Assembly (NCBI GenBank): GCA_002840365.1
Contig: PHAO01000001.1
Coordinates: 652,360 to 716,359, forward strand
Length of the DNA stretch: 64,000 nucleotides
Source of the DNA: Candidatus Dojkabacteria bacterium HGW-Dojkabacteria-1
GTDB lineage: Bacteria; Patescibacteriota; Dojkabacteria; SC72
Direction: 5' to 3'
A program made the translations under genes and the position numbers. Positions 5,381-44,211 of the stretch are shown one piece after another. The notes under the pieces were generated by a model. That model was not told the origin of the DNA. It ran no database searches and worked only from the letters and a program-made list of their open reading frames with translations. The first letter of the stretch is position 1; every line of letters starts with the position of its first letter.

Positions 5381-5381
5381 A

Positions 5382-6824: not shown

Positions 6825-6841
6825 TTGTATATATGAATATA

Positions 6842-25812: not shown

Positions 25813-25814
25813 AC

Positions 25815-26312: not shown

Positions 26313-26313
26313 A

Positions 26314-27129
26314 TTAATCTATTCTAACAAATACAGTTAATAAATTGGCGTAATCAAAAGATGGAGAGACAAAACCCGATTTTGACGTAGCAGCAGGATT
26401 TTTTGAGAGTGCAACTACCCTACCTACTATCAGTAAATCCCCTATTCTCTCATCTCTTATAACTACAATATCACCATCAGAAACATCAGCATTTGCACCT
26501 ATGTTCTCTATCCTAATACCATCTAAACTACCTGTAATAACTGCTCTGGACTTAATATACCCATCTAAGTTACTAATTTCTTGCAAATTGGCTGGTACAA
26601 TGACTACTTCATATGTACTCATTCTGTTAATAGGTAATCTAACAAGAGAACCTGCCCTATCTAAACTTGATATAACTCCAACAAAAGTATTTCCAACAGA
26701 AACAACATCTCCCTCTTTAAGACCATCTTTTATTCCTGTATTTATATAAAGATCGCCTTTCTCAGACATACCTAATACCTTTGAAACTACATATTTGTAC
26801 TCAGGTATAACTATCGAGGAATTTTCTTTTAAAGCTTTGAACTCTTCATAGTCTATTAATATTTCTTTTGTAGATTTAAGCTCAATAATTTCCTCCTTCA
26901 ATGCTTTGTATTCCTCTATGTATGTTGATGCGTCAAACAGAGCTTTACTCCAATTAGAAACGGAGGAGCTAATGTCCCTTGCTACAAAAGATACTGGCTC
27001 AAATACATATGCAAATGGAATTCTTAGATATGATGAAAATGGCAACCTACCTACGAGTAGTAATAATAGTCCTAAGAGTAAAAGCAGAATTGGTTGAAGA
27101 GATTTTATCTTTAATATCGTTTTTTTCAT
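26314..27129 (-). CDS. mreC: Rod shape-determining protein MreC
   Basis: N-terminal TM, a coiled-coil segment (EEYKALKEEIIELKSTKE), then beta-rich domains. Follows mreB. Confidence 0.75.
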   Translation of the reverse strand: MKKTILKIKSLQPILLLLLGLLLLLVGRLPFSSYLRIPFAYVFEPVSFVARDISSSVSNWSKALFDASTYIEEYKALKEEIIELKSTKEILIDYEEFKALKENSSIVIPEYKYVVSKVLGMSEKGDLYINTGIKDGLKEGDVVSVGNTFVGVISSLDRAGSLVRLPINRMSTYEVVIVPANLQEISNLDGYIKSRAVITGSLDGIRIENIGANADVSDGDIVVIRDERIGDLLIVGRVVALSKNPAATSKSGFVSPSFDYANLLTVFVRID

Positions 27130-27144
27130 TTGAAAAGAATTAGG

Positions 27145-28200
27145 TTAAATAAGTTCTTCCCAAGATTTTTGTACTTTTTCGAGCAAATCAATGTGATCTA
27201 ACATCGATGCTGTTCCTCTTGCAACTGCAGAGAGTGGATCATCTACTATTTTAACGGGTATATTTAATTCTTCCATCCAAAATTCATCCAAACCTTTGAT
27301 TAATGCTCCACCACCAGCAACATGTATTCCATCATTGTATATATCCTTAAGAAGTTCTGGTGGAGTATCTTCTATTGCATCCTTTACTGCTTCAGTTATT
27401 TGACCCAAAGAAACCATAATAGCTTCTCTAACCTCTGTACTACTAAACTTGATTGATTTTGGAAGACCTGTTAACAAATCCCTTCCTTGAAGAGTAATCT
27501 CCTTTTCCTCTTTCATAGGAGATGCTGAGCCTATCTCTATCTTTACATCTTCAGCAGTTCTTTCTCCGATAAGGATGTTGTATTTATCTCTTACATAGTT
27601 CACTACATCTTGGTTCATCTCATCCCCAGCTATTCTTACAGTATTATCTACAACAATATCTCCTAAAGAAAGCACAGCTATACCAGTTGTACCACCTCCA
27701 ATATCCACTATCATACTTCCTGATGCTTCCTCTATTGGCAATCCTACTCCAATTGCGGCAGCCATAGATTCTTCTACAATAAAGACATCTCTTGCTCCAG
27801 CAGTTTTTGCGGCATCAATTACGGCTTGCCTTTCCACTTCTGTAACAGACGATGGCACTCCTACTACTACTCTTGGCTTTGGTATTTTGAAACCTTTTAC
27901 ATAGTTTTTGTGTGCACTATTAATAAAATGGTGAATCATAGCCTGAGTAGTATCAAAATCTGAGATTACTCCATCTTTTAATGGCCTAACTGCAACAATG
28001 TTTGCAGGTGTTCTACCAATCATCTCCCTTGCCTGTTGTCCAACAGCCAATACAAGCTTTGATCTTTTATCTATAGCAACAACAGAAGGTTCTGATACAA
28101 CAATACCTTCACCACGAAGATATACCATCGTGTTTGCAGTACCTAAATCTATTCCTAGATCATATGTAAATATTTCCCAAACAGAATCAAAAAGAGACAT
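27145..28200 (-). CDS. mreB: Rod shape-determining protein MreB (actin homolog)
   Basis: GIDLGTANTMVY phosphate-1, DIGGGTTGIAV phosphate-2, and GGGALIKGL adenosine motif. Confidence 0.9.
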   Translation of the reverse strand: MSLFDSVWEIFTYDLGIDLGTANTMVYLRGEGIVVSEPSVVAIDKRSKLVLAVGQQAREMIGRTPANIVAVRPLKDGVISDFDTTQAMIHHFINSAHKNYVKGFKIPKPRVVVGVPSSVTEVERQAVIDAAKTAGARDVFIVEESMAAAIGVGLPIEEASGSMIVDIGGGTTGIAVLSLGDIVVDNTVRIAGDEMNQDVVNYVRDKYNILIGERTAEDVKIEIGSASPMKEEKEITLQGRDLLTGLPKSIKFSSTEVREAIMVSLGQITEAVKDAIEDTPPELLKDIYNDGIHVAGGGALIKGLDEFWMEELNIPVKIVDDPLSAVARGTASMLDHIDLLEKVQKSWEELI

Positions 28201-29409: not shown

Positions 29410-29483
29410 GCCGAAGTAGCTCAGTTGGTCAGAGCAATTGTTTTGTAAACAATAGGTCGAGAGTTCGAATCTCTCCTTCGGCT
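29410..29483 (+). tRNA. tRNA-Thr (anticodon TGT)
   Basis: Acceptor GCCGAAG/CTTCGGC, D-arm GCTC-AGTTGGTCA-GAGC, anticodon stem ATTGT/ACAAT with loop TTTGTAA, T-arm GAGAG-TTCGAAT-CTCTC. CCA is encoded after the discriminator T. Confidence 0.85.
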
Positions 29484-29490
29484 CCATTGT

Positions 29491-29573
29491 GCAGAGGTGG
29501 CGGAGTGGTCAAACGCATCGGACTGTAAATCCGACTCCTTCGGGATTCACTGGTTCAAATCCAGTCCTCTGCA
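29491..29573 (+). tRNA. tRNA-Tyr (anticodon GTA)
   Basis: Acceptor GCAGAGG/CCTCTGC with discriminator A, anticodon stem TCGGA/TCCGA with loop CTGTAAA, long variable arm CTCCTTCGGGATTC, T-arm ACTGG-TTCAAAT-CCAGT. Confidence 0.85.
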
Positions 29574-29640
29574 TATTCCCCTATTGTATTTTTTCATATC
29601 TAATATATACTTTTTAGTATATAAATTTAGCTTTTCGTAT

Positions 29641-30366
29641 ATGAACGATATGATGGGCTTTATCATAGGTATTGTATTTGTAATTGTCCCTATAGCAATA
29701 GTAGGAACAGTTGTATATATGATAGTTCAATCAGCTAAAAACAAGGATGCTAAATTTAAAATATCTGCGAAAACACTCTTTCAAATCTACCTTTTCTTGA
29801 TATCTTTCTTAACTTTAATAATTGCAGTAATTGGTGGTGCAACAGCAATTAAAGCTGCACTTTCATATCAATTTGGAATACCCTTTTCATATACACTTTA
29901 TAAGGCAAATGATTTCACAGAAGCTAAAATGTATGATCCTTACCTTGCCAGAGAAAACTTCACTCCTTGCTACGAAGGAGACCCTATGGTCTTTGGTTCA
30001 AACGAATACTGTTTTAATACACAACTACAAAAGACAGATTTAATTAATGGTCTCACCATATTTGTATCAATGGTTATACTCTTTGCTATACATCAATTTG
30101 CAATAACAAGAATCAAAGGTAAAGAGAAGCTACAATGGCTTTACAAACTATATACCTTTGCATCGTTAATACTGTATAGCATCATTGGATTAGTCTCAAT
30201 TCCAACCTCTATATATCAACTTACTAATTTCCTTTTAGCCGAGCCTGAGAAATATGTTCAATCTACTCCAGAGGCTCCTGCAATGGTTTTAGGAGTAGCA
30301 ATCCTATCTGTACCTCTCTGGATATATTTTCTTAAGAAGACTTCAGATATTAAGGAAGAGGATTAG
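29641..30366 (+). CDS. Hypothetical multi-pass membrane protein
   Basis: The ORF-track start (29497) overlaps tRNA-Tyr, so the in-frame Met at 29641 (MNDMMGFIIGIVFVIVPIAIVG...) was chosen. About six predicted TM helices and no known motifs. Confidence 0.55.
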   Translation: MNDMMGFIIGIVFVIVPIAIVGTVVYMIVQSAKNKDAKFKISAKTLFQIYLFLISFLTLIIAVIGGATAIKAALSYQFGIPFSYTLYKANDFTEAKMYDPYLARENFTPCYEGDPMVFGSNEYCFNTQLQKTDLINGLTIFVSMVILFAIHQFAITRIKGKEKLQWLYKLYTFASLILYSIIGLVSIPTSIYQLTNFLLAEPEKYVQSTPEAPAMVLGVAILSVPLWIYFLKKTSDIKEED

Positions 30367-30370
30367 GTCT

Positions 30371-30399
30371 TTAGAAAAGTTTTAAATTTGTAGTATAAT
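30371..30399 (+). promoter_or_regulatory. Candidate sigma70 promoter for tRNA-Thr(GGT) (TTAGAA -17 nt- TATAAT)
   Basis: TATAAT at 30394-30399, 12 nt upstream of the tRNA 5' end. TTAGAA at 30371-30376 with a 17-nt spacer. Confidence 0.4.
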
Positions 30400-30410
30400 C
30401 ATTTCCATAC

Positions 30411-30484
30411 GCTGGATTAGCTCAGTTGGTTAGAGCACATTCATGGTAAGAATGAGGTCCTGAGTTCGACTCTCAGATCCAGCT
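30411..30484 (+). tRNA. tRNA-Thr (anticodon GGT)
   Basis: Acceptor GCTGGAT/ATCCAGC, D-arm GCTC-AGTTGGTTA-GAGC, anticodon stem CATTC/GAATG with loop ATGGTAA, T-arm CTGAG-TTCGACT-CTCAG. CCA is encoded. Confidence 0.85.
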
Positions 30485-30722
30485 CCATTTTTTCAGAAGT
30501 TAGAAAGCAAACAAAAACACACTCAACCTTTTAAAAAGGTCTTTTTAAAAGTATTTTACTTTAGGTTTTCGTTAATCGTATGGCATTAAACTACTTACCA
30601 AAGTTACATACTAAATAGTATCATAAAAAAAGAGGAAAAACATTTGACCTAACCCTTATATTTACATATAATACTCTGTATTTCCCATAAAATCCTAATT
30701 ATTAATTTTGACGCGTAAAAAG

Positions 30723-30887
30723 ATGGCAAAGGTTAAGAGAGATATAATAGCTTTGAAGTGTACAGAATGCGATAGTAGAAACTATACATCTTACAAAACA
30801 AAGAATATTAAGGAAAAAATTGAAAAGAAAAAATATTGTCCTGTATGTCAAAAACATACTTCACATAAGGAGACTAAGGTTAAATAA
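30723..30887 (+). CDS. rpmG: 50S ribosomal protein L33
   Basis: A 54-aa ORF, below the ORF-track length cutoff: MAKVKRDIIALKCTECDSRNYTSYKTKNIKEKIEKKKYCPVCQKHTSHKETKVK. It has a C4 zinc ribbon and the classic position upstream of tRNA-Trp-secE-nusG. Confidence 0.75.
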   Translation: MAKVKRDIIALKCTECDSRNYTSYKTKNIKEKIEKKKYCPVCQKHTSHKETKVK

Positions 30888-30907
30888 TTTAGCTGTTTTA
30901 CAGACAA

Positions 30908-30979
30908 GGGCCCATAGTTTCAATGGTAAAACAGTGGTCTCCAAAACCATAGTTCTCCGTTCGAGTCGGAGTGGGCCTG
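30908..30979 (+). tRNA. tRNA-Trp (anticodon CCA)
   Basis: Acceptor GGGCCCA/TGGGCCT with discriminator G, anticodon stem GTGGT/ACCAT with loop CTCCAAA, T-arm CTCCG-TTCGAGT-CGGAG. The conserved position is between rpmG and secE. Confidence 0.8.
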
Positions 30980-30989
30980 CTTAAAAAAT

Positions 30990-32917: not shown

Positions 32918-32940
32918 CATATTCAAAAAAATAAGTATTA

Positions 32941-32966
32941 AAGACCTCTTTTAAGAGGTCTTTTTG
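32941..32966 (+). terminator. Rho-independent terminator-like hairpin after rplA
   Basis: AAGACCTCTT-tt-AAGAGGTCTT perfect 10-bp stem followed by TTTTGTTTG. Confidence 0.6.
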
Positions 32967-32985
32967 TTTGATATGCTAAATATCC

Positions 32986-33014
32986 TTTACCAAAGGGCTT
33001 TTTTCAAGTATAAT
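32986..33014 (+). promoter_or_regulatory. Candidate internal promoter (PL10-like) in the rplA-rplJ spacer
   Basis: TATAAT at 33009-33014. TTTACC 17 nt upstream is a weak -35. The position is analogous to the E. coli rplJ promoter. Confidence 0.3.
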
Positions 33015-33083
33015 TCGTCGCAACAAACCAACCGGTATTGTTAGCTCTCGAAAAATCCGACAAAAACATTACAAGGAGAAATC

Positions 33084-33281
33084 ATGACCCCAACAGCACG
33101 TACGAACGGTAACGTTAATTGTGTTGATTGCACTCGCGAAGGCGCTGAGTGCGAAGGTTGTAAAACCGATGGATTGACTGCCGCTGACCTCATAGGGGTC
33201 TACACAGAGGGGATGTCAATTGAGGAATTGGCAGAATTTTATGAGAATATCTTGGAAACGGAGGATTTAAAGCCGATATAA
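33084..33281 (+). CDS. Small Cys-containing acidic protein (CxxC-x6-CxxC) encoded in the rplA-rplJ leader region; GC-rich relative to genome
   Basis: Consensus Shine-Dalgarno AAGGAG sits 5 nt upstream of the ATG, which is rare in this window. The ORF is about 50% GC against roughly 33% background. Product: MTPTARTNGNVNCVDCTREGAECEGCKTDG...EELAEFYENILETEDLKPI. Confidence 0.45.
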   Translation: MTPTARTNGNVNCVDCTREGAECEGCKTDGLTAADLIGVYTEGMSIEELAEFYENILETEDLKPI

Positions 33282-33310
33282 TTGTTTTAATATTGGTAAT
33301 TAGGTTGGTT

Positions 33311-33372
33311 TGACAAGAGAGAACGGTAGATTGCTTTCTACATCGCATCATATTGCCGTTCTCTCTTGACCA
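33311..33372 (+). promoter_or_regulatory. Stable stem-loop in the rplJ 5' leader (candidate L10 autoregulatory leader element or attenuator)
   Basis: CAAGAGAGAACGG (33315-27) pairs perfectly with CCGTTCTCTCTTG (33356-68), a 13-bp stem with a 28-nt loop, about 115 nt upstream of the rplJ start. Confidence 0.4.
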
Positions 33373-33486
33373 ATCCTAAGTATATCATATATAATCACCT
33401 CAGTAATTATCCTAAGAAACATGGTACAAAAATAAATCCATGCGAGGAAATTGATAATTCAACATATTAATTAAGTAATACATACG

Positions 33487-34466: not shown

Positions 34467-34494
34467 TAAAGAGGTCTTTATGACCTCTTTTTTC
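34467..34494 (+). terminator. Rho-independent terminator after rplL
   Basis: AAAGAGGTC-ttta-GACCTCTTT stem followed by TTTTCTTT. Confidence 0.6.
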
Positions 34495-34503
34495 TTTATA
34501 TAT

Positions 34504-34534
34504 ATTCGACAATACATACTAATACAAAGTATAA
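34504..34534 (+). promoter_or_regulatory. Candidate promoter of the 7TM/ATP-grasp operon
   Basis: TTCGAC at 34504-09, a 19-nt spacer, then TATAAT at 34529-34, about 38 nt upstream of the 34572 start. Confidence 0.3.
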
Positions 34535-34571
34535 TGATGCGGGAATATTCTAATTTTTCAATGTATTATAT

Positions 34572-35237
34572 ATGTTTGAAACTTCAGGCTTAACAGAATG
34601 GATATTACAACATGGAGTATCAAAAATGGCACTTGAGTTACTCATAGCAGTAGCTGTTTTAGCTACTATTGTCAGTATAGCAAGATACGTTATTGGCTCT
34701 AAAACATATGGTATATATGCACCAATACTTTTGGCAATTGCATATTCATATACTGGATTAAAATATGGCCTAGCTATTACCATTATTGTAATACTAACAT
34801 CCCTACTCTCTTACAATGTACTCAAGAGAATTAGAATGCACTACATTACTCGTATTGCTACAAACTATACAATTTTAGCAATGGTATTAGTTCTTTTCTT
34901 TGTGTTGATAGATATGTTTGGATTGGGGTTAGAGAATATGGCAAATATACCACCACTAGCTTTCATCTCTATCGCAGCTCTCTCAGACTTTTTCATCAAA
35001 CAGTATGTTAAAAAATCTTTTGCAGGTTCAATATTAACCTTAACAGGAACAATATTAGTGGCTGCAATCGGATGGTTTGTAATAACTAGGGAAATTATCT
35101 CTGAATATATGATAAACAATCTTTGGGTTCTCCCCTTGCTAACATTAGTAAACTTACTACTCGGTCAGTTTACAGGTTTAAGAATCAAGGATTACTTTAG
35201 ATTCAAACTATCAAACAGAGATGATTCATCTAATTAA
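34572..35237 (+). CDS. Stand-alone 7-transmembrane protein (7TM module of the kind found fused to inactive transglutaminase in ATP-grasp-associated systems)
   Basis: A 221-aa protein with seven hydrophobic helices (ALELLIAVAVLATIVSIA; IYAPILLAIAYSY; LAITIIVILTSLLSY; ILAMVLVLFFVLIDMF; PLAFISIAALSDFFI; ILTLTGTILVAAIGWFVI; LWVLPLLTLVNLLLGQF). Its 3' end overlaps the next ATP-grasp gene by 17 nt. Confidence 0.65.
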   Translation: MFETSGLTEWILQHGVSKMALELLIAVAVLATIVSIARYVIGSKTYGIYAPILLAIAYSYTGLKYGLAITIIVILTSLLSYNVLKRIRMHYITRIATNYTILAMVLVLFFVLIDMFGLGLENMANIPPLAFISIAALSDFFIKQYVKKSFAGSILTLTGTILVAAIGWFVITREIISEYMINNLWVLPLLTLVNLLLGQFTGLRIKDYFRFKLSNRDDSSN

Positions 35238-36696
35238 CAACAAATACAAACAGGTTTTAGGATTAAACAGAAGGAACCAAGAGTATGTAAGACCTTATAA
35301 TTCTCCCTCTGCGAAAGCTATTGCAGATAACAAGATTCTTACAAAGAGAATTCTCAAAAAAGAATTCATTCAGACTCCTGATGTATACAAATTAATTAGA
35401 ACAAAAAAACAACTACAGTTTCTAGATTGGGATAGCCTTCCAAAGAGTTTTGTAATAAAGCCTAACAAGGGAACAGGTGGAAACGGAATAATAGTCTTCT
35501 ATGGAAAAAAGAAAGGCCAAGAGGCTTGGATTAGGCCTAATGGCACCATTATGAGTAAAAGAGATATCATTCTTCACATTGAAAATATTCTCGAAGGAAG
35601 ATTCTCAATGGGTTCGAAAAACGACATTGCAATAATAGAAGAAAGAATAAAGACCGATCCACTCCTTAAGCAGTACTCTTACAAAGGTGTTCCTGATATT
35701 AGAATAATCTGTTTTAATCAGGTCCCAGTAATGGGAATGCTTAGATTACCTACTAAAAGGTCAAATGGTACTGCAAACTTACATTCAGGTGCAATATGTA
35801 CAGGTATAGATATGGAATCAGGAATAACTACCTACTCTATGCATATGCAAGCATCAGCTTTTAGATCAGATTCATATAAACTAATAGATTCAACATTAGA
35901 TTTACAAGAAAACAAACAATTAAGTGGAGTACAAATACCATATTGGAATGAAATGTTAGAGATTGCACTTAAGTGTCAAAAAGCTAGTAGACTTGGGTAT
36001 ATAGGGGTAGACATAGCAATAGATGCAGAAAAAGGTCCAGTAGTATTTGAAATAAATGCAAGACCAGGACTTGGCATACAAGTCGCTAATCAAGCAGGTC
36101 TAAGATGGAGATTAGAAAAGGTTAAAGATTTGAAAATAAAGAGCATAAAGCATGGAATTAGAGTTTCAAAAAATCTCTTTGGTGGTGAAATTGAGGAAAG
36201 TATTGAAGCAATTAGTGGTAGAAAAGTTCTAAATATTACAGAAAGAATATCTGTATTTAACAAAGGTACTGATGTATTAAAAATTAAAAGAACAAAAAAT
36301 ATTAAAAAGGAAATAGTTAAAGCATTCATGGATACAGGAATACTTACATCAAGAATCTCCTCTACCCTTGCAAACAGAATAGGGTATCTAAAAGCTACTA
36401 AAGATTTCGAAAACTTTGATATTCCTAAGAGATTTACCAGTTTTAAGGAGGCTCAGGAATATATTGATAAGTATGAGAAAGAGATATGTGAACATCCTGA
36501 TATAAAAAGATTAGCTAAAATCCTAGAAGATGGTGAGATAAAGATAAGGCCTGTTTTTGATATACCAATAAAAATTTCTGATACAGTTAAAGTAACAGAA
36601 TTTGTATCTACGGACGCAGAAGATAGTACATATCAAGTAGTACTTGGTAGATCTGATCTTTCTGGATATTTGATTGATACAAGCAATACCTTCTAA
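35221..36696 (+). CDS. ATP-grasp amidoligase 1: alpha-L-glutamate-ligase-like (RimK-related) domain fused to a C-terminal retropepsin-like (ATP-dependent Zn-protease-type) domain
   Basis: N-terminus LGLNRRNQEYVRPYNSPSAKAIADNKILTKRIL...FVIKPNKGTGGNGIIVF...DIRIICFN...FEINARPGLGIQ is typical of the alpha-L-glutamate ligase-like family. The C-terminal roughly 180 aa end in YQVVLGRSDLSGYLIDTSNTF, which resembles the retropepsin-like domain of these systems. Confidence 0.75.
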   Translation: MIHLINNKYKQVLGLNRRNQEYVRPYNSPSAKAIADNKILTKRILKKEFIQTPDVYKLIRTKKQLQFLDWDSLPKSFVIKPNKGTGGNGIIVFYGKKKGQEAWIRPNGTIMSKRDIILHIENILEGRFSMGSKNDIAIIEERIKTDPLLKQYSYKGVPDIRIICFNQVPVMGMLRLPTKRSNGTANLHSGAICTGIDMESGITTYSMHMQASAFRSDSYKLIDSTLDLQENKQLSGVQIPYWNEMLEIALKCQKASRLGYIGVDIAIDAEKGPVVFEINARPGLGIQVANQAGLRWRLEKVKDLKIKSIKHGIRVSKNLFGGEIEESIEAISGRKVLNITERISVFNKGTDVLKIKRTKNIKKEIVKAFMDTGILTSRISSTLANRIGYLKATKDFENFDIPKRFTSFKEAQEYIDKYEKEICEHPDIKRLAKILEDGEIKIRPVFDIPIKISDTVKVTEFVSTDAEDSTYQVVLGRSDLSGYLIDTSNTF

Positions 36697-36714
36697 TATA
36701 TTTTAGGAAAATAT

Positions 36715-37695
36715 ATGCAAAAAACTTACGAACAATATTTACAAGAAGCAGGAAACGTACATCTTGCCTACTATATTGAAGCTGCAGATATTTTAGGAAT
36801 TAAATACGAAATAGTTAAGAAATCCTTAATGGCTAGATTTGAATACAACAACAGACACTGGTTTATCATTAATACTGCAACACCTCTTACTAATACAACA
36901 AGTACGACTATAGCTAAAAGAAAAAATCTTACTAATGAGGTATTAGCGAAAGCAGGAATTGCAGTACCAAAACAGGTACCACTAAGAGATAAGAAAGATG
37001 CAGTAAAGTTTTTTGATGAATATAAAAATATTGTCATAAAGCCATCTCAACAACTTGGAGGGATAGGCGTTACCCTACTTCCCAAAGATAAGAGACAGGT
37101 AGAAAAAGCCTTTAAGCATGCTCTCTCAAAATCAAAATCAGGAGATACAGCAAAAGTAATAGGAGAAGAATTCATAGAAGGAGAAAATTATAGACTTCTG
37201 GTTGTTGGTGATTCTGTTGTAGGCATTGTAAGAAGAAAGGCAGCATTTGTCATAGGTAATGGAAAGGATAATATTAAAAAATTGATTGAAGAGAAGAATA
37301 CTTTAAGAAAACAAAATATGCTTAAACCAATTCTCATAGATAACGAGGTAAAGCTGAGATTGGAAAATTTAAAAATAAATCTAAGATATATTCCAAAAGA
37401 TGGTGAGGAAGTTTTATTAAGATATAACTGTAACCTAACAACTGGTGGTACTACACAAGAGTGTGCTAGTGAGGCACATCAGTACTATAAAGATTTAGCT
37501 ATTAATGCTGTAAAAGCAATTGGTACACAGTTTGGTGGAGTAGATATAATTACTCCTGATATTACACAACCTGCCAAATGTGGTGTGAATGAAATAAACT
37601 ACAACCCTGGACTTCGTTTACACTATAAGGCAGACGAAGGAGAGGCCGTAAAGGTTGCTGTTCCAATAATGGAATATATAGTAAATAATATTTAA
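36715..37695 (+). CDS. ATP-grasp amidoligase 2: cyanophycin-synthetase-like ATP-grasp (G-domain only, no Mur-ligase domain)
   Basis: ILGIKYEIV...FIINTATPLTNTTSTTIAKRKNLTNEVLAKAGIAVPK, VIKPSQQLGGIGVTL, GENYRLLVVGDSVVGIVRRKAAFVIGNGKDNIKKLIEEKN, and EINYNPGLRLH. The pattern parallels the CphA N-terminal ATP-grasp region. Confidence 0.75.
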   Translation: MQKTYEQYLQEAGNVHLAYYIEAADILGIKYEIVKKSLMARFEYNNRHWFIINTATPLTNTTSTTIAKRKNLTNEVLAKAGIAVPKQVPLRDKKDAVKFFDEYKNIVIKPSQQLGGIGVTLLPKDKRQVEKAFKHALSKSKSGDTAKVIGEEFIEGENYRLLVVGDSVVGIVRRKAAFVIGNGKDNIKKLIEEKNTLRKQNMLKPILIDNEVKLRLENLKINLRYIPKDGEEVLLRYNCNLTTGGTTQECASEAHQYYKDLAINAVKAIGTQFGGVDIITPDITQPAKCGVNEINYNPGLRLHYKADEGEAVKVAVPIMEYIVNNI

Positions 37696-37705
37696 TGCCC
37701 AAAAC

Positions 37706-39400
37706 ATGTCAAAAACTATACAAGGTTTAAATCTAGAATCACAATTTACAACAGTAAAGATAGAATTAAAAGGTAAAGATATTGGGCAAATAACAAAGCT
37801 TCTAGACACTATTAGCTCTTTTCACCCTATTTTCTTTAAAGAATATATTCTCTCAAGTGAAGAATTAAGCATTCGTTCAAAGCTTCCTGCAATATGGAGA
37901 GAATCTGATGAATATATTCAAAAGCTCTCAAGTGGAGACATTACATATGAGAAAGCATATGAAGGAGTTGTTAATACAGTAATTACTAAAAGAGTTAAGT
38001 CCATGTCTACAATTCCCCTACTACATGCTGCTCATAATAAGAATATTGAAACAAGCTTAGCAGTTATAAATAGAAACATTGTGGAAGGATATGAACTTGG
38101 ATATAGCAATACTTTTAACAGATACTATGTAATAGGCTGTGGTAAAGGATCACAAATAACAGGTTCTATTGCTTCAAGTAAAGATGCCGCTATAGCACAA
38201 AAAATACAGAGAGATAAATGGTCTACAAATACCATAATAGAAAGATTAGGATTACCAATGCCAAAGTGGCAGATATTGGATAAAGAGAGTGACATAGAAA
38301 AGGTTTGGAAGGAGTATGAGAAGCCAGTCGTTATTAAGCCCACTGGTTTAACAGGTGGTAAAGGAGTAACAGTAGGAATAGAGAATATTGAGAATGCAAA
38401 GAAAGCTTTTAATAGGGCAAAAAAAGAGACAAGCAATAAAGTTCGGTCCCCTTGGCAAACTAAAATTATGATTCAGGAACAGGTCGCAGGAGAAGATTAC
38501 AGGCTTTTAGTTATAAATGGTAAGTTAGAAGTAGCTACAAAAAGAATACCCGCATTTGTTGTTGGAGATGGGAAGAAAAACATTAAGGAATTAATTGAAG
38601 AAACAAATTCTGATCCAAGAAGAGATGTCACAAATCCAGCTCACATACTCAAACCAATTGTAATTGATGAGCCTCTGTTAGATCTATTAGAAAAAAACAA
38701 ATTAACTCTTGAATCTATCCCAGAGAAAGATATGAAAGTCTTTGTAAGAAATATCGCAAGTATGAGTCAAGGTGGAATAACAGAAGATTTTACAGATAAT
38801 GTAAGTAAGGAAATTAAAATTTTGGTAGAGAGTATTGCTCAATCAATACATGCATTTACACTTGGAGTAGATGTAATGTGTAAGGATTCGTCTAAACCAC
38901 TTACTAAAGAAAATGGCGCTATACTAGAGATTAATACTATGCCAGAGGCATATTTGAATCTTTTCCCTGTATTGGGTAAAGAAAGAGGATACGTTGCAGA
39001 CAGATTTGTCGATGGACTACTTTCAGAAAATAAATGTCAAAAGTATGTAGTTGTGGGACAAAGTATTAATGACATACCAACAACATTAAGGAAATGGTGG
39101 AGACAAGACAAGAATCAAAATATTGGAGAGATAATTGAAGACAGATACTATGTAAATGGCCTTCAGATTAACGATGGACTAGAAAGATGGCATGCATTTG
39201 AAGCAATTAAGTGTAACGCTTCATTAGATACAATAATATTACACCATAGAGATTGGAATAATGTTAAAGAGGATGGTTTGGGTTTTGACCATATTAATAC
39301 ACTGTATATAACAAAAGATATGGCTAGAGAGAAAGAGTACATGAAGTTAATGAAGAAATATAAAGGTATGAAGTTAATAGATAATATTAAAATAATATAA
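37706..39400 (+). CDS. ATP-grasp amidoligase 3: CphA-like ATP-grasp with about 190-aa N-terminal and about 130-aa C-terminal extra domains
   Basis: Central region PVVIKPTGLTGGKGVTVGIEN, GEDYRLLVINGKLEVATKRIPAFVVGDGKKNIKELIEETNSDPRR, and GAILEINTMPE. The N-terminal domain precedes the ligase core as in CphA. No Mur-ligase motifs. Confidence 0.7.
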   Translation: MSKTIQGLNLESQFTTVKIELKGKDIGQITKLLDTISSFHPIFFKEYILSSEELSIRSKLPAIWRESDEYIQKLSSGDITYEKAYEGVVNTVITKRVKSMSTIPLLHAAHNKNIETSLAVINRNIVEGYELGYSNTFNRYYVIGCGKGSQITGSIASSKDAAIAQKIQRDKWSTNTIIERLGLPMPKWQILDKESDIEKVWKEYEKPVVIKPTGLTGGKGVTVGIENIENAKKAFNRAKKETSNKVRSPWQTKIMIQEQVAGEDYRLLVINGKLEVATKRIPAFVVGDGKKNIKELIEETNSDPRRDVTNPAHILKPIVIDEPLLDLLEKNKLTLESIPEKDMKVFVRNIASMSQGGITEDFTDNVSKEIKILVESIAQSIHAFTLGVDVMCKDSSKPLTKENGAILEINTMPEAYLNLFPVLGKERGYVADRFVDGLLSENKCQKYVVVGQSINDIPTTLRKWWRQDKNQNIGEIIEDRYYVNGLQINDGLERWHAFEAIKCNASLDTIILHHRDWNNVKEDGLGFDHINTLYITKDMAREKEYMKLMKKYKGMKLIDNIKII

Positions 39401-39402
39401 AT

Positions 39403-40356
39403 ATGAACTACTTAATTATAGATAAAAGACAAAGAGTCGAAACAGGTAATGAGGACAAAATCGCCACTGCCAATCTAAGACTCATGGAAGAGTTGGATAA
39501 AAAAGGTATACCCCACTCTCTTGCATACAATGATGAACTAGAATTTCAGTTCATTGATGGTGAAACAGTGATAAAAGCGAAAGGTGAAGATATTCGAAAA
39601 TACACTCATATACTGCTTAGAGGGCATGCTTTACATAACGAAATGGAGTATCAATTCAAGAGATACATAGTGGACTATATAGATGAACATAATAGAAAAA
39701 ATCCAAATGAAAAGGTATTAATACAAAATAGTGAAGCTATGAAAAGGTTTCCTTACTACAATAAGATAGCTCTTGCCCTATTCTGCTCTATCAATGATAT
39801 ACCTTACTTCAATACATATTTTAGAACAGATGGAAATTATTTAGCACACAGGGACATACTCGAAGCTTTTCCTCTTATAATTAAGGAGTATGCAGGAGCA
39901 AATAGAGTTGAAATTATTGATGGTAAGGAAAAAATTAAAAAGAACGTCTTTAAAATAAGTAATGAAGATGATTATAGACAGGAGTATTTAAAGGATTTAG
40001 ATCACTCTAGGTTTTTCATACAGGAATTCTCTGATAGCGGTAAGGATATGAGAATCTTCGTAAAATTAGGCAAAGTCATTGGTGGATGGAAGAGAGAGGC
40101 AGTGGATGGTTTCATGACTGTAAAGGATGGAAATTACACTATGTACAACGAACCCGAGAAGGAAATAAAGGAATTTGCTGAAAATGTTGCACAAAAACTC
40201 TCAGCAGATTTTGTAGCAGTAGATATTATGTATATGGGAGACAAACCCTTACTACAGGAGATTAGTTATCACCCAGGTTTCAAAGCATACGAAACAAAAA
40301 TAGAGGGAGAACCTGTAAATATAGCAGAAGCAATAGTAACAGCATTTAAGGAGTAA
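39403..40356 (+). CDS. ATP-grasp amidoligase 4: RimK/glutathione-synthetase-like
   Basis: FFIQEFSDSGKDMRIFVKLGKVIGGWKREAVDGFMTV...AENVAQKLSADFVAVDIMYMGDKPLLQEISYHPGF is a RimK-like C-terminal ATP-grasp core. The start is 2 nt after the previous gene. Confidence 0.7.
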   Translation: MNYLIIDKRQRVETGNEDKIATANLRLMEELDKKGIPHSLAYNDELEFQFIDGETVIKAKGEDIRKYTHILLRGHALHNEMEYQFKRYIVDYIDEHNRKNPNEKVLIQNSEAMKRFPYYNKIALALFCSINDIPYFNTYFRTDGNYLAHRDILEAFPLIIKEYAGANRVEIIDGKEKIKKNVFKISNEDDYRQEYLKDLDHSRFFIQEFSDSGKDMRIFVKLGKVIGGWKREAVDGFMTVKDGNYTMYNEPEKEIKEFAENVAQKLSADFVAVDIMYMGDKPLLQEISYHPGFKAYETKIEGEPVNIAEAIVTAFKE

Positions 40357-41523
40357 CTAAATACCTGCTTTCTTAAATATTGATTTCCAAAGTTCTTTGG
40401 TAGGAACTATGTGAGCATTCGGAATTAACCCTTCATCTACCCATTCACATTGATTAAAATCAATCTTTCCTGCATAGAGCTTTTCATACAATGAAGGATC
40501 TTTTTCAAGTTGCCTAATAACCTTTCTAAATCCTCTGAAATACACAATATCCTTTGCATATATTCCTGGATAACTAGTATCCCCTAGTCCTCTTTTTACC
40601 CTATATACAACATCAAAAGCTGATCTCCTTGGAAGTGCACCTAATACACTGTTATACAACTCTCTAAACGTTAGTTCTTCTCCAATATATATTGCCCATA
40701 CAAGTGCTGCTTTCTCTTTTAACCATCTAAGAGTTAACAAATCCATATTAGATTCATTCCATGTAGCCAAACCCTCCTCGACATCTAGATAACTGGGTAA
40801 ATTGGCTTTTGCTAAAGCATCAAAACCACTCTTCGCACCATTAGTAGACCTAAGAACATGGGTACCAACTTCATGTACAATTGTTTTTCTTAGTTTAAAC
40901 TTTGATCTCTCTATATTTGGATCTAAGAGTACCTGCTTTGTCTTTATACCAACCTTAGCTCCATTTTTTGCAATATTCATAGATTTAGCAACACTCCATC
41001 CATCTAAATATAATTCCTTAAACACAATATCAAAAACCTCTTGTATATCATCAAACCTTAGCATATCCTCAGGTTTAGCCTTTTTCATATTTGCCAACTT
41101 ATATGCATCTACCTTACCCCTTAATACTCTAGTTGCATTTCTAAATAGCTTTGGAGATGGCTTGGAATATTTCTTGTATGAGAGATCTGTAACTAATTCG
41201 TTATTACCTACTGAATGCATAAGGTCGCTAGAGTCTTTTTTAGATTCGATAAGTTGGATATAGAAGTCGGAAATTCTAGGATCTACATCAGTAATTTCTT
41301 TCAATGAAGAAAGTTTCTTAAAAATCTCTTCATTTTTGTTTTTAATTAATCTATATGTAAATTGCGGCTCATAGTTATCTGAGTCGAAAAATTTCTTTTT
41401 CTCTACATCTAAATTAGTAGGAGTAAACACTAAGCCAATGGGAATTCTTAATTGTGAGAGGTGATTTGTAACCTCCTCGAGCTTCATTGTTGATTTATCC
41501 TTTTTAGAGAAGATATTTACCAT
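40357..41523 (-). CDS. DUF1704 / QEGLA-motif zinc metallopeptidase (MATCAP-like carboxypeptidase family)
   Basis: TIVHEVGTHVLRSTNG (HExxxH-type zinc site) and downstream DVEEGLATWNE (QEGLA-like motif). About 390 aa, typical for this family. Convergent with the ATP-grasp operon and co-directional with the MreB paralog upstream. Confidence 0.65.
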   Translation of the reverse strand: MVNIFSKKDKSTMKLEEVTNHLSQLRIPIGLVFTPTNLDVEKKKFFDSDNYEPQFTYRLIKNKNEEIFKKLSSLKEITDVDPRISDFYIQLIESKKDSSDLMHSVGNNELVTDLSYKKYSKPSPKLFRNATRVLRGKVDAYKLANMKKAKPEDMLRFDDIQEVFDIVFKELYLDGWSVAKSMNIAKNGAKVGIKTKQVLLDPNIERSKFKLRKTIVHEVGTHVLRSTNGAKSGFDALAKANLPSYLDVEEGLATWNESNMDLLTLRWLKEKAALVWAIYIGEELTFRELYNSVLGALPRRSAFDVVYRVKRGLGDTSYPGIYAKDIVYFRGFRKVIRQLEKDPSLYEKLYAGKIDFNQCEWVDEGLIPNAHIVPTKELWKSIFKKAGI

Positions 41524-41540
41524 TACAAGAATAAAAAATA

Positions 41541-42557
41541 TTAATTATACCCCTTGTTAAAAGAGAATACTCTTTCTCCTGTCACCATTAATTCTAATGC
41601 TATACCAGTACCCTTTACAACACAATACATAGGTTCATCTGCAACATGGGCAGGGACACCTATTGCCTTTGTAAATAGCTTATCAAGGTTTCTTAATTTT
41701 GAAGTACCACCACTCATAACCATTCCCCTGTCCATAATATCTGCTGAAAGCTCAGGTGGAGTTTTCTCCAATACACCCTTAATACTATTAATAATACTTA
41801 ACAATGGTCTTTTCACTGCAAATGCAACATCATTGGAATCAATATTAATTGCTTTTGGAAGACCAGCCCCTACATCCCTTCCTCTAACTTCCATACTCTT
41901 CGGGTTCTTTATTTCAATTGCACTTCCAATCCTTATCTTAATATTCTCTGCAGTTTGCTCTCCAATCAATACACCCTTCTTCTTACGCATATAGTTTATT
42001 ATTGCCTCATTAATAGCATCTCCAGCAATCCTTAGTGAGTCATACTCTACAATACCATCCAAAGAAAGAACCGCTATCTCTGCAGTACCACCTCCTAAAT
42101 TCACAATCATATTCCCTGAAGAAGTCTCTATTGGTAGACCAGCACCAAGTGCTGCTAAAAGAGGTTCTGGTAACATAGTAACTTGCCTTGCACCTGCATT
42201 ACTTGCTGCTTTAATAACTGCTCTTTGCTCAACAGTGGTAATACCTGCAGGTACACTTATCACAACCTCTGGTTTAAAAAATCTAGATTTACCAAGAGCT
42301 TTATTCAAAAAATACTTAAGCAAAGCTTCCGTTACTCTAGAGTCTGCGATTACACCATTTCTCATTGGCCTTCTTGCAACAATATTCTCAGGAGTCTTAC
42401 CAATCATTCTTTTAGCTTCAGAACCTACTGCTATAACCTTATAATTATTTACATCTATTGCAACAACAGTTGGCTCAACAAAGGATATCCCTTCCCCTTG
42501 GACAAATACTATTGAATTAGCAGTACCTAAATCTATACCTAACTTCTTTCCTAACAT
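41541..42557 (-). CDS. Second MreB-family actin homolog (paralog of mreB at 27145)
   Basis: LGIDLGTANSIVFVQGEGI, NLGGGTAEIAVLSL, and MSGGTSKLRNL actin-fold motifs. About 45-50% identity to the first MreB by eye. The next gene on the same strand, 17 nt downstream, is the DUF1704 peptidase. Confidence 0.8.
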   Translation of the reverse strand: MLGKKLGIDLGTANSIVFVQGEGISFVEPTVVAIDVNNYKVIAVGSEAKRMIGKTPENIVARRPMRNGVIADSRVTEALLKYFLNKALGKSRFFKPEVVISVPAGITTVEQRAVIKAASNAGARQVTMLPEPLLAALGAGLPIETSSGNMIVNLGGGTAEIAVLSLDGIVEYDSLRIAGDAINEAIINYMRKKKGVLIGEQTAENIKIRIGSAIEIKNPKSMEVRGRDVGAGLPKAINIDSNDVAFAVKRPLLSIINSIKGVLEKTPPELSADIMDRGMVMSGGTSKLRNLDKLFTKAIGVPAHVADEPMYCVVKGTGIALELMVTGERVFSFNKGYN

Positions 42558-42612: not shown

Positions 42613-44211
42613 ATGATATACTTAGACACAATGACAAAAGAAAAGAGGAACAAAAAAATCCTTACTTTAATATCAATAATTGCATCTGTTTCTGTTTACA
42701 TAGGAGCTGTCTTAGTATATCTGTATGCAAATGGTTGGAGAATAGATCCCTTTAATCAACAAGTTATCAAAACAGGAGTACTTACAGTAGAATCAGATCC
42801 TTTCTTAGCCTCACTTTTTATAGAGGGAGAAAGCAGAGGAAGAACACCACGAAGCACAAGTCTTCATGTTGGAGAATACAATATTTCTGTACGAAGAGAT
42901 GGATATTTAGAATGGCAAAAGAGAGTTGAAATTAAGGAGGAGAAGTCTACTAATGTATACCCATGGCTTATAAGGGAGAGGATAGAAAAACAGAATCTCT
43001 CTACTATCGAAGGGAGAAAATATTTACAAAGCTGGGAAAGTGAAAACAGCGATAGAATATTAATCCTTACAAGTAAATTGAATGAGGAGACTACACTTTT
43101 TGATTTTGAACTATGGCTATACATAGTGAACACAACCTTTTGGGACCTAAGTTCTAATCCAAAAGTTGTACTCTCATTTCAATCCGCACAAGAACCTACA
43201 ATTGACCTACTCTCCTCTCCAGCTGGAGTATATTGGCTACTTAAATATACCCAAGATAGCATCAGTACTTCATACCTATTAGATACTTCTAAAAGTACTA
43301 CTTTAGAAAACTTAGTAGTACTAAACACCTCTCCTTTTGACTCATACGAAATTAGTTGGGCTAGAAACAATCAATATTTAATGTTTGAATCAGACCAAGA
43401 TTTAATTTCCTTTAGTATAGATAGACAAAATAGATATCTTTTAATAAAGAAGACAGCTGATAACCAATATATCTGGAATACCGACGAACAAGGATACTTC
43501 TATATATTAGAGAGTGCATTGGAAAATGAAACCGAAAGAGTATATGCATATGTTTTAACTCAACAAGAAATGGATGGCTCTAATCCCAAGGTTTTAGTAA
43601 GTGACCTATTCTTTCAAAAGAATAAAGATTACTTGACCAGATATATAGAGGATACAACACCTTTTAGATTTACTGCTTTTACCAATTCTACTGCAAGTAC
43701 ACGCAGTGTTGGTAAGGTTGAACACATTAGAGTAAATCAAAGTGCGCAGGGAATATATATTCAAACCTCAGTAGCTTCTTACTGGTACAATATGAAAACA
43801 AAGAGATATCATATGATTACTCCATTCAAGTCTGAATTTGTTTCTTTTGCCCCAGATAATAGTAAATTAATTTACAAAGATGAGAATGAATACAGTATCT
43901 TTACTTTCCTTAAAGAAGAAAGCAATCCTAATGTAGAAATTGGAGCTAAAAGAATTGATAATCTCTCCCTGAGCAATGGAAAGATACTTGGTTGGCTATC
44001 AAATTCTTCATATATCTACTTTGTAGAAGATAATCGCTTGTATATTGCTGATAAAGACGGAGATAACAAAACATTAATTTTAAGTAGTGTCGATACAAAT
44101 TTACACTTAGGAATGACATCCTCTAGAGATTACCTCTTTACTATATCTATCTTAGTAAACCCGGTAGATGGACAAGAGATAATATCAATAGACAGGTATC
44201 TAGTTCACTAA
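42613..44211 (+). CDS. Membrane-anchored PEGA-domain protein with large beta-rich extracytoplasmic region
   Basis: N-terminal TM (ILTLISIIASVSVYIGAVLVYLY). PEGA-like domain (SDPFLASLFIEGESRGRTPRSTSLHVGEYNISVRRDGYLEWQKRVEI). The remainder is Y/S/T/N-rich and repetitive. Confidence 0.55.
   Translation: MIYLDTMTKEKRNKKILTLISIIASVSVYIGAVLVYLYANGWRIDPFNQQVIKTGVLTVESDPFLASLFIEGESRGRTPRSTSLHVGEYNISVRRDGYLEWQKRVEIKEEKSTNVYPWLIRERIEKQNLSTIEGRKYLQSWESENSDRILILTSKLNEETTLFDFELWLYIVNTTFWDLSSNPKVVLSFQSAQEPTIDLLSSPAGVYWLLKYTQDSISTSYLLDTSKSTTLENLVVLNTSPFDSYEISWARNNQYLMFESDQDLISFSIDRQNRYLLIKKTADNQYIWNTDEQGYFYILESALENETERVYAYVLTQQEMDGSNPKVLVSDLFFQKNKDYLTRYIEDTTPFRFTAFTNSTASTRSVGKVEHIRVNQSAQGIYIQTSVASYWYNMKTKRYHMITPFKSEFVSFAPDNSKLIYKDENEYSIFTFLKEESNPNVEIGAKRIDNLSLSNGKILGWLSNSSYIYFVEDNRLYIADKDGDNKTLILSSVDTNLHLGMTSSRDYLFTISILVNPVDGQEIISIDRYLVH

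Follow-up and report, generated by a model that had tools for sequence, protein, structure and literature searches.

A conserved six-gene locus in Dojkabacteria joining a stand-alone 7TM module, four ATP-grasp ligases and two kinds of peptidase

Organization of the locus

We analyzed a stretch of 64,000 nucleotides (nt) from Candidatus Dojkabacteria bacterium HGW-Dojkabacteria-1 (GCA_002840365.1, contig PHAO01000001.1, positions 652,360 to 716,359; hereafter the window) and, within it, a run of genes encoding a seven-transmembrane (7TM) protein and four ATP-grasp ligases. An earlier note, made from the sequence alone, had described these five genes at 34572-40356 as one operon, and its overlaps and spacings are borne out by the open reading frame (ORF) map. 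The five genes stand as members of the system, whereas its 3' limit has to be moved, since a convergent gene for a MATCAP-like metallopeptidase belongs to it too, on the domain fusions described below. The genes and the signals ahead of them are:

34468-34490, plus strand: terminator-like hairpin of rplL, the upstream boundary of the operon (9-bp stem, 4 G-C pairs, T tail)
34506-34535, plus strand: sigma-70-like promoter candidate TCGACA-18-TATAAT (an 11/12 consensus match only)
34572-35237, plus strand: 7TM protein gene, 221 amino acids (aa)
35221-36696, plus strand: ligase 1 gene, 491 aa
36715-37695, plus strand: ligase 2 gene, 326 aa
37706-39400, plus strand: ligase 3 gene, 564 aa
39403-40356, plus strand: ligase 4 gene, 317 aa
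40357-41523, minus strand: gene for a metallocarboxypeptidase of the MATCAP/DUF1704/QEGLA type, 388 aa, convergent

The 3' end of the 7TM gene overlaps the start of the ligase 1 gene by 17 nt, the ligase genes are separated by 18 nt (1-2), 10 nt (2-3) and 2 nt (3-4), and the stop codon of the MATCAP-like gene directly abuts that of ligase 4. No terminator-like site was detected on the plus strand within 34572-40356. The promoter previously read as TTCGAC-19-TATAAT is the same site with its register shifted by one base, and it follows the rplL hairpin; over the region as a whole such promoter-like sites are no more numerous than in shuffled sequence. The gaps of 2-18 nt hold no small ORF for a carrier or precursor peptide, no signal peptide was seen in the protein sequence of any soluble part, and an Rfam scan of the window returned tRNAs only. 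All six proteins were without matches (0) to the PADLOC models of anti-phage defence, and a defence reading was dropped.

Conservation within Dojkabacteria

The ligase 3 alignment was scanned over one genome per species. A relative was present in 102 genomes, and the best 80 were kept as loci. All 80 come from the WS6/Candidatus Dojkabacteria lineage, which lies within the Patescibacteria and to which the named near-relatives belong; several of the records are labelled 'Saccharibacteria' and one Microgenomates. All six genes were found in 51 of the 80 loci, in constant order and orientation (7TM, ligases 1-4, then MATCAP on the opposite strand). The other 29 loci are cut by contig or flank ends except for two, one in which MATCAP was not found within 7 kb downstream (L081) and one in which ligase 4 gave a partial match (L054). 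The block is always flanked by rplKAJL on one side and on the other by a second mreB, which is followed by a gene for a PEGA-domain protein.

Identity to the proteins of the window ranges over 47-97% for ligase 1, 50-94% for ligase 2, 42-92% for ligase 3, 39-92% for ligase 4, 50-93% for MATCAP and 35-94% for the 7TM protein. Ribosomal protein L10, taken for comparison, covers 45-97%, similar to ligases 1 and 3. On this conservation the ORFs of the operon are genes and not chance ORFs, and conservation at the level of a ribosomal protein in such tiny genomes suggests an important function.

The 7TM protein and ligase 1

The 7TM protein matched PF14402 (E=9e-18, 65 bits against a cut-off of 25) and proved to be a 7TM_transglut module rather than a member of a known transporter family, an alternative that had been allowed for. 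Pfam and NCBIfam profile searches detected no transglutaminase domain in it, and its match to the RloB model NF052267 covers positions 315-504 of 508 only (34.8 bits, cut-off 900). From these matches we class it as a stand-alone RloB-like module without transglutaminase. Its hydropathy profile has about seven hydrophobic segments, and the K/R-rich loops and tail all fall on one side, which predicts an N-out, C-in topology. The conserved residues include R38, Y39, G42, K44, YGIYAP, H89, Y90 and R93, and the conserved polar ones sit in predicted cytoplasmic loops.

Two domains were recognized in ligase 1:

35269-36126, plus strand: ATP-grasp domain, aa 17-302, RloC / alpha-L-glutamate-ligase-like
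36223-36693, plus strand: C-terminal retropepsin-like aspartic peptidase domain, aa ~335-491, with a DTG motif

Ligase 1 scored 230.7 bits against PF14397 (cut-off 31.4) and 283.5 bits against TIGR02291, just under the equivalog cut-off of 314.2; on these scores it is a member of the RloC-like family and not an equivalog. Its nearest structural neighbours are ArgX, LysX and RimK, enzymes that ligate onto protein C-terminal carboxylates. In the second domain the catalytic D371-T372-G373 (nt 36331-36339) is conserved as DTG. A retropepsin-like protease had been named in the earlier note as a domain associated with such systems. The association holds, and what had been overlooked is that the domain is fused to the C-terminus of ligase 1.

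A system with these parts, RloABC of Pseudomonas aeruginosa, has been studied genetically and biochemically (Lormand et al. 2025, PMC12239564), so that the family can no longer be called experimentally uncharacterised. The defects of a triple rloA peptidase mutant are suppressed when rloB or rloC is lost (PMC12239564), which means that the RloC ligase and the RloB 7TM protein produce something which the peptidases have to clear. The Rlo phenotypes in Pseudomonas concern low-osmolarity survival, cell shape, biofilm formation and beta-lactam tolerance (PMC12239564). RimK makes poly-alpha-Glu, either free or on the C-terminus of S6, while stretches of 8 or more Glu are what RimB and RloA cleave (PMC12239564). 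In RloA, residues K46, R114 and R137 coordinate poly-Glu (PMC12239564); the equivalent of R114 is R443 in ligase 1 and is kept in 58/58 sequences.

Ligases 2 and 3 are relatives of cyanophycin synthetase

Ligases 2 and 3, which share 33% identity, had both been called CphA-like, and profile and fold searches confirmed it. Ligase 2 matched PRK14016 (E=3e-63), the C-terminal half of GshAB (1e-54) and CphA1 entries of the PDB (4e-32), and ligase 3 matched PRK14016 (E=5e-74) and the CphA1 entry 7lg5 (E=3e-46). Both had also been said to lack the Mur-ligase-like half. This is right for ligase 2, a bare stand-alone homologue of the CphA G domain on its alignments, and has to be corrected for ligase 3, which keeps a CphA-type N domain and an M-domain remnant without P-loop:

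37706-38125, plus strand: N domain of ligase 3, aa 1-140, CphA-type
38126-39043, plus strand: G (ATP-grasp) domain, aa 141-446, altered nucleophile pocket
39044-39400, plus strand: vestigial M-domain remnant, aa 447-564 plus the stop codon, ~118 aa, Mur-type P-loop lost

For the AlphaFold2 model of ligase 3 (pLDDT 90.4), Foldseek ranked CphA2 first (7ta5; TMq 0.72, TMt 0.69, 590 columns) and the CphA1 structures below it. CphA2 consists of an N domain, a G domain and a truncated inactive M domain (PMC10273328), and the full-length alignment with it implies the same three parts in ligase 3. In the alignment the Mur-type P-loop GTNGKTT of CphA1 is replaced by GQSINDIPTT. The motif Cx19HxxEH marks the primer-generating peptidase of the CphA1 N domain (PMC9262961). 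It is absent from the ligase 3 sequence, as is HxxEH, and a peptidase site in this N domain was ruled out.

Both ligases were mapped by alignment onto TeCphA1, in which Arg309 holds the acyl-phosphate, Arg323, Asn394 and Arg458 bind the incoming aspartate and Glu215 binds the primer (PMC9427784). R160, R174, N240, G299 and R301 of ligase 2 correspond to R309, R323, N394, G456 and R458, and each is at least 98% conserved among 76 sequences. With its Asp-binding residues kept, ligase 2 would fit an enzyme that extends the carboxyl end of a peptide by an acidic amino acid. Ligase 3 retains R266 and R280 (R309 and R323) and carries three substitutions that are invariant in the family, N394 to S352, G456 to E414 and R458 to Y416. 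H267 and the primer-binding E215 are missing from both ligases; in ligase 3 they are replaced by G217 and by K166, a variable position. The remodelled pocket suggests that the nucleophile of ligase 3 is probably neither aspartate nor beta-Asp-Arg.

Many records of metagenome-assembled genomes (MAGs) and Joint Genome Institute (JGI) annotations label homologues of ligase 3 'cyanophycin synthetase'. An exact-sequence look-up of ligase 3 gave no identical record, and our literature search on cyanophycin synthetase or CphA2 in the candidate phyla radiation (CPR, the Patescibacteria) or Dojkabacteria listed no paper in which that enzyme is mentioned. Taken at face value, the MAG annotations, together with the best sequence and fold matches to CphA1 and CphA2, would make ligases 2 and 3 a split synthetase for ordinary cyanophycin, a nitrogen store of multi-L-arginyl-poly-L-aspartate. 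We consider this very improbable indeed. The P-loop is lost and no active M domain remains for the addition of Arg; the equivalents of Asn394, Arg458 and Glu215 are gone from ligase 3 and that of His267 from both enzymes; the scores against the NCBIfam cyanophycin synthetase models lie far under their cut-offs (212-250 against 850-877 bits); the cluster holds no cyanophycinase; and its partners, an RloC-like ligase, a 7TM protein, a retropepsin and MATCAP, are foreign to cyanophycin loci. A true cyanophycin synthetase was rejected on the missing M-domain activity and the changed key residues, which indicates that the label is misleading.

Ligase 4 and the generic ATP-grasp matches

Ligase 4 matched PF08443 (E=6.4e-9), and it matched MptN (6.8e-12) and rimK_fam (4.7e-10) under their cut-offs. 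The RimK-like call made for it earlier holds in the form of a divergent ATP-grasp enzyme of the RimK/MptN/LysX type, as judged from PF08443. K161, D274 and E286 are invariant. At residues 286-288, E-I-S takes the place of the usual Mg-binding E-x-N, the last position being Ser in 70/74 and Gly in 4/74 Dojkabacteria sequences, whereas ligase-4-like proteins of other Patescibacteria retain E-x-N.

The catalytic Lys, Asp and Glu of the ATP-grasp fold are conserved in the ligases. Scores against the RimK family model TIGR00768 are 49, 70, 40 and 39 bits for ligases 1 to 4 (cut-off 143.4), and the models of PurK, PurD, PurT, Ddl, carbamoyl-phosphate synthetase and biotin carboxylase gave 14-49 bits against cut-offs of 243-1027. 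An assignment to primary metabolism was dropped because these matches are generic and sub-cut-off and partner genes are not adjacent: no purine, pyrimidine or fatty-acid gene adjoins the operon. The profile and PDB searches thus bore out the family calls for all five proteins, and the enzymes that might have replaced them, such as PurK, DdlA or carbamoyl-phosphate synthetase with their partners, left weak generic matches.

The MATCAP-like metallopeptidase

The protein encoded convergently to ligase 4 matched PF08014 (E=1.6e-29, 103.5 bits, cut-off 27), the proteobacterial QEGLA equivalog TIGR02421 (E=3.6e-33, 115.3 bits, under the cut-off of 338.65) and human MATCAP (7z5g, 8e-14). It carries H217-E218-x3-H222 at nt 40858-40875 and E249-E250-G251 at nt 40771-40779, and both HExxxH and EEGLA are invariant among 62 MATCAP-like sequences. 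HExxxH and EEG define the tubulin carboxypeptidases TMCP1 and TMCP2, and MATCAP/TMCP enzymes strip C-terminal residues and shorten poly-Glu chains (PMC10499314).

In 43/66 loci the MATCAP-like gene lies at most 10 nt from ligase 4 or overlaps it. We assign the gene to the ligase system because relatives of ligase 1 are fused to this domain, on their C-terminal side, in 47/150 clusters of the search described in the next section. No literature was found that links DUF1704 or MATCAP with ATP-grasp enzymes, nor any on the Pfam family names.

In Photobacterium damselae low salinity raises the expression of a QEGLA-motif protein of the MATCAP family 27-fold, one of the strongest inductions seen there (PMC10308900), an observation that echoes the hypo-osmotic Rlo phenotype.

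The same core in other Patescibacteria

An exhaustive profile-free search was made with ligase 1, followed by domain scans of the best 150 clusters at 50% identity. Besides the MATCAP fusions, a retropepsin region was present in at least 35/150 clusters, and a 7TM module, with or without transglutaminase, was fused N-terminally to the ligase-1-type ATP-grasp domain in 6/150; single cases had an added second ATP-grasp domain or a YdjC domain. Ligase-retropepsin fusions from outside Dojkabacteria were also built into a profile. Of the 8000 best word-sharing candidates scored with it, more than 5000 proteins matched at E<=1e-10, and these bear the names of Moranbacteria, Paceibacterota, Parcubacteria and other Patescibacteria.

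Seven loci of Patescibacteria other than Dojkabacteria were then read. Their left flank is yebC-ruvC instead of rplKAJL, and their core is the same: a 7TM gene of 216-248 aa overlaps or abuts a gene for a ligase-retropepsin or ligase-MATCAP fusion and is followed by 1-3 more ATP-grasp genes. In one locus the 7TM gene encodes a protein of 514 aa that includes PKD domains. A gene of its own encodes MATCAP in 3/7 loci, in 1/7 it is fused, and the extra ligases of two loci (L005 and L006) are by BLAST one ligase-4-like and one ligase-2/3-like protein each. The 17-nt overlap between the 7TM and ligase 1 genes recurs in distant Patescibacteria loci. These fusions and the changed flanks bind the 7TM protein, ligase 1, the retropepsin and MATCAP together as a single functional unit, beside which the further ligases regularly occur. 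On the loci read, several ligases around a minimal 7TM module are the rule in Patescibacteria, and the part specific to Dojkabacteria is the second CphA-like ligase, shaped as CphA2. The impression of a one-off system with four ligases around a minimal 7TM module did not survive, as 3-4 ligases are normal in many Patescibacteria. Co-occurrence of the four ligases, for which a survey had been suggested, is found in the Dojkabacteria loci, and a simpler core elsewhere, made up of a 7TM gene, the ligase-retropepsin fusion, a RimK-like ligase, a single CphA-G-like ligase and, in many cases, MATCAP.

Several further features were seen in these loci. A class A penicillin-binding protein (PBP) gene lies 1-3 genes 3' of the ligases in three of them (L004 12027-14558, L087 10406-13321 and L088 11888-14425), and a GNAT acetyltransferase gene directly follows the ligases in L004 and L088. 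In L087 the 7TM protein (3436-4980) has N-terminal PKD domains, presumably extracellular, and precedes a ligase-MATCAP fusion (4990-7377). A 926-aa protein of L090 (7001-9781) joins an RloC-like ATP-grasp domain, a retropepsin and a second ATP-grasp domain, and is flanked by two RimK-like genes and a DUF3541 gene.

The GNAT genes of these Moranbacteria-type loci are among the points that would fit a small-peptide osmolyte or thiol, in which sequential ligases make a defined di- to tetrapeptide (as in N-acetylglutaminylglutamine amide or glutathione) and the peptidases degrade it on osmotic change. Ligases 2 and 3 match the ATP-grasp half of GshAB at 1e-54 and 5e-43 and N-acetylglutaminylglutamine amide synthetase at 2e-35 and 3e-32, and both the Rlo phenotype and the 27-fold induction of the Photobacterium QEGLA protein are osmotic. 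We nevertheless regard such a product as improbable: RloA requires 8 or more Glu in a row and the relatives of MATCAP work on long tails, neither being of a dipeptidase type; ligase 3 carries a polymerase-type N domain and an M remnant; the operon is without a glutamate-cysteine ligase or amidotransferase partner; and a soluble pathway needs no 7TM tether.

Proposed function

Every relative of the core parts that has been studied works on acidic chains, and we therefore propose an acidic-peptide machine. The locus combines the domain identities, intact motifs, operon structure, conservation and fusion links (7TM, ligase 1, retropepsin, MATCAP) given above, and from these we infer substrates, order of steps, nature of the product and any export. 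It is quite probable that the genes encode an amidoligase and peptidase system acting on peptide carboxylates. For a more specific proposal we judge the chances evenly balanced: cytoplasmic, membrane-tethered, template-independent synthesis and trimming of a Glu/Asp-rich oligo- or polypeptide, by a system related to RloBC and RimK/RimB. The membrane-associated, template-independent peptide-forming machine put forward in the earlier note agrees with all findings.

As the soluble parts have no signal peptides, the chemistry would be cytoplasmic. The 7TM protein, with its C-terminus predicted in the cytoplasm, translationally coupled to ligase 1 and fused to it elsewhere, would hold ligase 1 at the inner face of the membrane. 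Ligase 1, being RloC/RimK-like, may activate a C-terminal or side-chain carboxylate as an acyl-phosphate and add Glu-type residues. Ligase 2 would extend a peptide at its carboxyl end by an acidic amino acid, ligase 3 would form a different bond, possibly adding a non-acidic or pre-made unit, and the RimK-like ligase 4 would perform one further step. Endo-cleavage of acidic stretches by the retropepsin and stepwise C-terminal trimming by the MATCAP-like enzyme could limit, edit or recycle the chain. The 7TM module may finally pass the product or its carrier toward the envelope, or couple synthesis to membrane state or osmotic stress; export by this route is the less probable part of the proposal.

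Several observations weigh against this acidic-peptide machine. The operon contains no candidate gene for a carrier or precursor, and the ligase scores lie under the equivalog cut-off of every named NCBIfam family. Ligase 4 with its E-x-S could be impaired or non-catalytic. In the retropepsin, the position of RloA K46 is F/Y in 18/18 Dojkabacteria sequences and K/R in 40/40 from other Patescibacteria, and the equivalent of R137, the Arg of a 'TDRS' motif, is absent in Dojkabacteria and R in 40/40 from other Patescibacteria. With two poly-Glu-binding basic residues lost, the Dojkabacteria substrate may not be plain poly-Glu. The RloA peptidases are periplasmic and both peptidases here are cytoplasmic, so the Pseudomonas logic may not carry over, and an export role of the 7TM module would be pure conjecture.

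The Dojkabacteria retropepsin has also gained an invariant Arg at DTG+5 (R378). To judge from the residue changes in the retropepsin and ligase 4, the Dojkabacteria version looks like a re-tuned system whose product is probably not plain poly-glutamate. A bolder version of the proposal, which we hold only tentatively and think rather doubtful, is that Patescibacteria make a new non-ribosomal heteropolymer or branched peptide at the membrane by a cyanophycin-like logic, with 3-4 separate ligases and two built-in erasers, and that the Dojkabacteria product has a non-acidic, possibly basic component and a role in the envelope or under osmotic stress. The non-acidic component is suggested by Glu414/Tyr416 of ligase 3, the loss of basic residues in the retropepsin and the Asn-to-Ser change in ligase 4. 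If this bolder version were true, the envelope or osmotic function would matter enough to hold ligase 1 at the level of conservation of a ribosomal protein.

Patescibacteria have tiny genomes and few biosynthetic pathways, yet about 7 kb are spent here on a six-gene kit for building and trimming peptides, and the cluster is nearly universal in Dojkabacteria, a minimal-genome lineage. With a ligase, both kinds of peptidase and a membrane anchor fused or translationally coupled, the CPR version could be a simpler handle on the product of the whole Rlo family. The MATCAP family, known as trimmers of eukaryotic tubulin tails, is wired to ATP-grasp ligases in bacteria, which bears on the origin of the tubulin writer/eraser pair.

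Neighbouring genes and possible targets

Downstream of the system lie:

41541-42557, minus strand: second MreB paralogue (MreB2), a conserved neighbour in Dojkabacteria only, of uncertain membership of the system
42613-44211, plus strand: PEGA-domain membrane protein, beside the system

MreB2 and the PEGA-domain protein adjoin the system in every Dojkabacteria locus, and MreB2 is 65-99% identical among loci; its C-terminus is not conserved, and in other Patescibacteria it is unlinked to the system. The canonical mreB-mreC-mreD-PBP2 cluster is at 23794-28200 (minus strand), 13 kb upstream.

These neighbours bear on a second way of reading the enzymes, as writers and erasers of a tail on a protein. 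The ligases would add, and the peptidases remove, an acidic or mixed tail on a C-terminus or side chain, as RimK/RimB do on S6 or TTL/TTLL with MATCAP/CCP on tubulin, and the target could be a ribosomal protein, a cytoskeletal one such as the MreB paralogue, or a protein of cell-wall synthesis. The top structural neighbours of ligase 1 (RimK, ArgX/LysX) ligate onto protein C-termini, the characterised relatives of both peptidases act on protein tails, the Dojkabacteria operon sits between rplJL and the second mreB, and in three other CPR loci class A PBP genes follow 1-3 genes downstream. We think tail tagging unlikely, though it deserves serious consideration. The flanks vary (rplJL/mreB2 or yebC-ruvC) and no target is consistently linked; no protein of the window ends in an acidic run; the three-domain, CphA2-like ligase 3 has the architecture of a polymerase; and a soluble target would leave the tight link to the 7TM protein unexplained. 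MreB2 and L7/L12 were rejected as tagged substrates, since neither has an acidic C-terminus and the tail of MreB2 is unconserved.

The surroundings have also to be weighed for cell-wall peptide chemistry, in which amino acids would be added at the membrane to a peptidoglycan precursor or another envelope glycopolymer, as by D-aspartate ligase and the pseudomurein ATP-grasp ligases. Class A PBP, glycosyltransferases, MreB2 and the PEGA protein are among the neighbours, Pseudomonas rlo mutants have cell-shape and beta-lactam phenotypes, PF14397 bears the Pfam name 'sugar-transfer associated', and there are weak matches to Ddl and pseudomurein ATP-grasp models. Those matches are generic, however (25-49 bits against cut-offs of 243-500), both peptidases are without a known role on muropeptides, and the neighbourhood evidence comes from few, partly related loci; a role of this kind seems to us to stand little chance.

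On the upstream side, the gap between rplA and rplJ (32918-33486) comprises 570 nt of non-coding sequence without a match in Rfam, including no L10 leader at the gathering threshold; in one related genome (locus L003) this place is taken by an ORF of 239 aa that runs on the other strand. A tRNA cluster (Thr-Tyr, Thr, Trp) at 29410-30980 precedes nusG-rplKAJL, and the ~840 nt from tRNA-Tyr to the next tRNA-Thr hold only one dubious ORF, which overlaps the tRNA-Tyr gene. The gene for ribosomal protein S6, rpsF, whose product with its C-terminal Glu-Glu is the substrate of RimK/RimB, is not in the window.

Comparison with known systems

Systems of this class were reportedly predicted by comparative genomics by Iyer et al. 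in 2009 (Mol Biosyst). Among the systems that have been studied, Pseudomonas RloABC comes closest and RimK/RimB next. With RloABC the locus shares an RloC-type ATP-grasp ligase (PF14397, TIGR02291-like), an RloB-type 7TM module (PF14402) and a retropepsin, all encoded in one locus. It differs in that the RloB 7TM module is fused to an inactive periplasmic transglutaminase, which the Dojkabacteria 7TM protein lacks; in that RloA is a stand-alone, secreted protein with a signal peptide, whereas the Dojkabacteria retropepsin is fused to the ligase and predicted to be cytoplasmic; and in its three further ligases and the MATCAP-like metallopeptidase. The two also differ by taxon, since 96% of RloB matches are proteobacterial (PMC12239564) and the present system is found in Patescibacteria. 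Of the three features that define RloABC, the locus by its predicted domains lacks two, a transglutaminase fused to the 7TM protein and a peptidase that is secreted and stands alone. RimK/RimB has in common with it the pairing of a cytoplasmic ATP-grasp ligase with a cytoplasmic retropepsin that cleaves Glu runs (RimB). The differences are that no ligase here reaches the RimK cut-off, that there are a membrane partner and several ligases, and that no link to rpsF was seen.

CphA2 (7ta5, 8fxh) shares with ligase 3 the N domain, the G domain and the truncated inactive M domain over a full-length alignment, and CphA1 shares with ligase 2 the Asp-recognition residues of the G domain. Identity to CphA1 and CphA2 is ~20-30%; ligase 3 is ~65-80 aa shorter than CphA2 and has a different pocket (S352, E414, Y416), ligase 2 is a bare G domain, and the genomic partners are foreign to cyanophycin metabolism. 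In the 'tubulin code' of MATCAP/TMCP and TTL/TTLL, a PF08014 peptidase (HExxxH and EEG) is likewise paired with ATP-grasp amino-acid ligases, and the logic of writer and eraser on acidic tails is the same; the present system is bacterial, has no tubulin, and its peptidase is often fused to the ligase. LysW/LysX/ArgX differs in that neither a LysW-like carrier gene nor lysine or arginine pathway genes are found here, and the ligases score 21-39 bits against the LysX model (cut-off 276). In PgsBCA/CapBCA, an amide ligase and a small polytopic membrane protein make the acidic polymer poly-gamma-glutamate at the membrane, and a dedicated depolymerase goes with them. PgsB is a Mur-type ligase and not an ATP-grasp enzyme, and these proteins are not homologous to those of the operon, so that the likeness is one of analogy only.

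No paper describing this gene cluster was found in the literature. Since all of its enzyme types were already known, as was the pairing of a ligase with a peptidase, the system is not categorically new. What appears to be new, from the domain assignments, is the company in which an Rlo-type system is found here: CphA-type ligases, a RimK-like ligase and a MATCAP-type peptidase, never described together with it.

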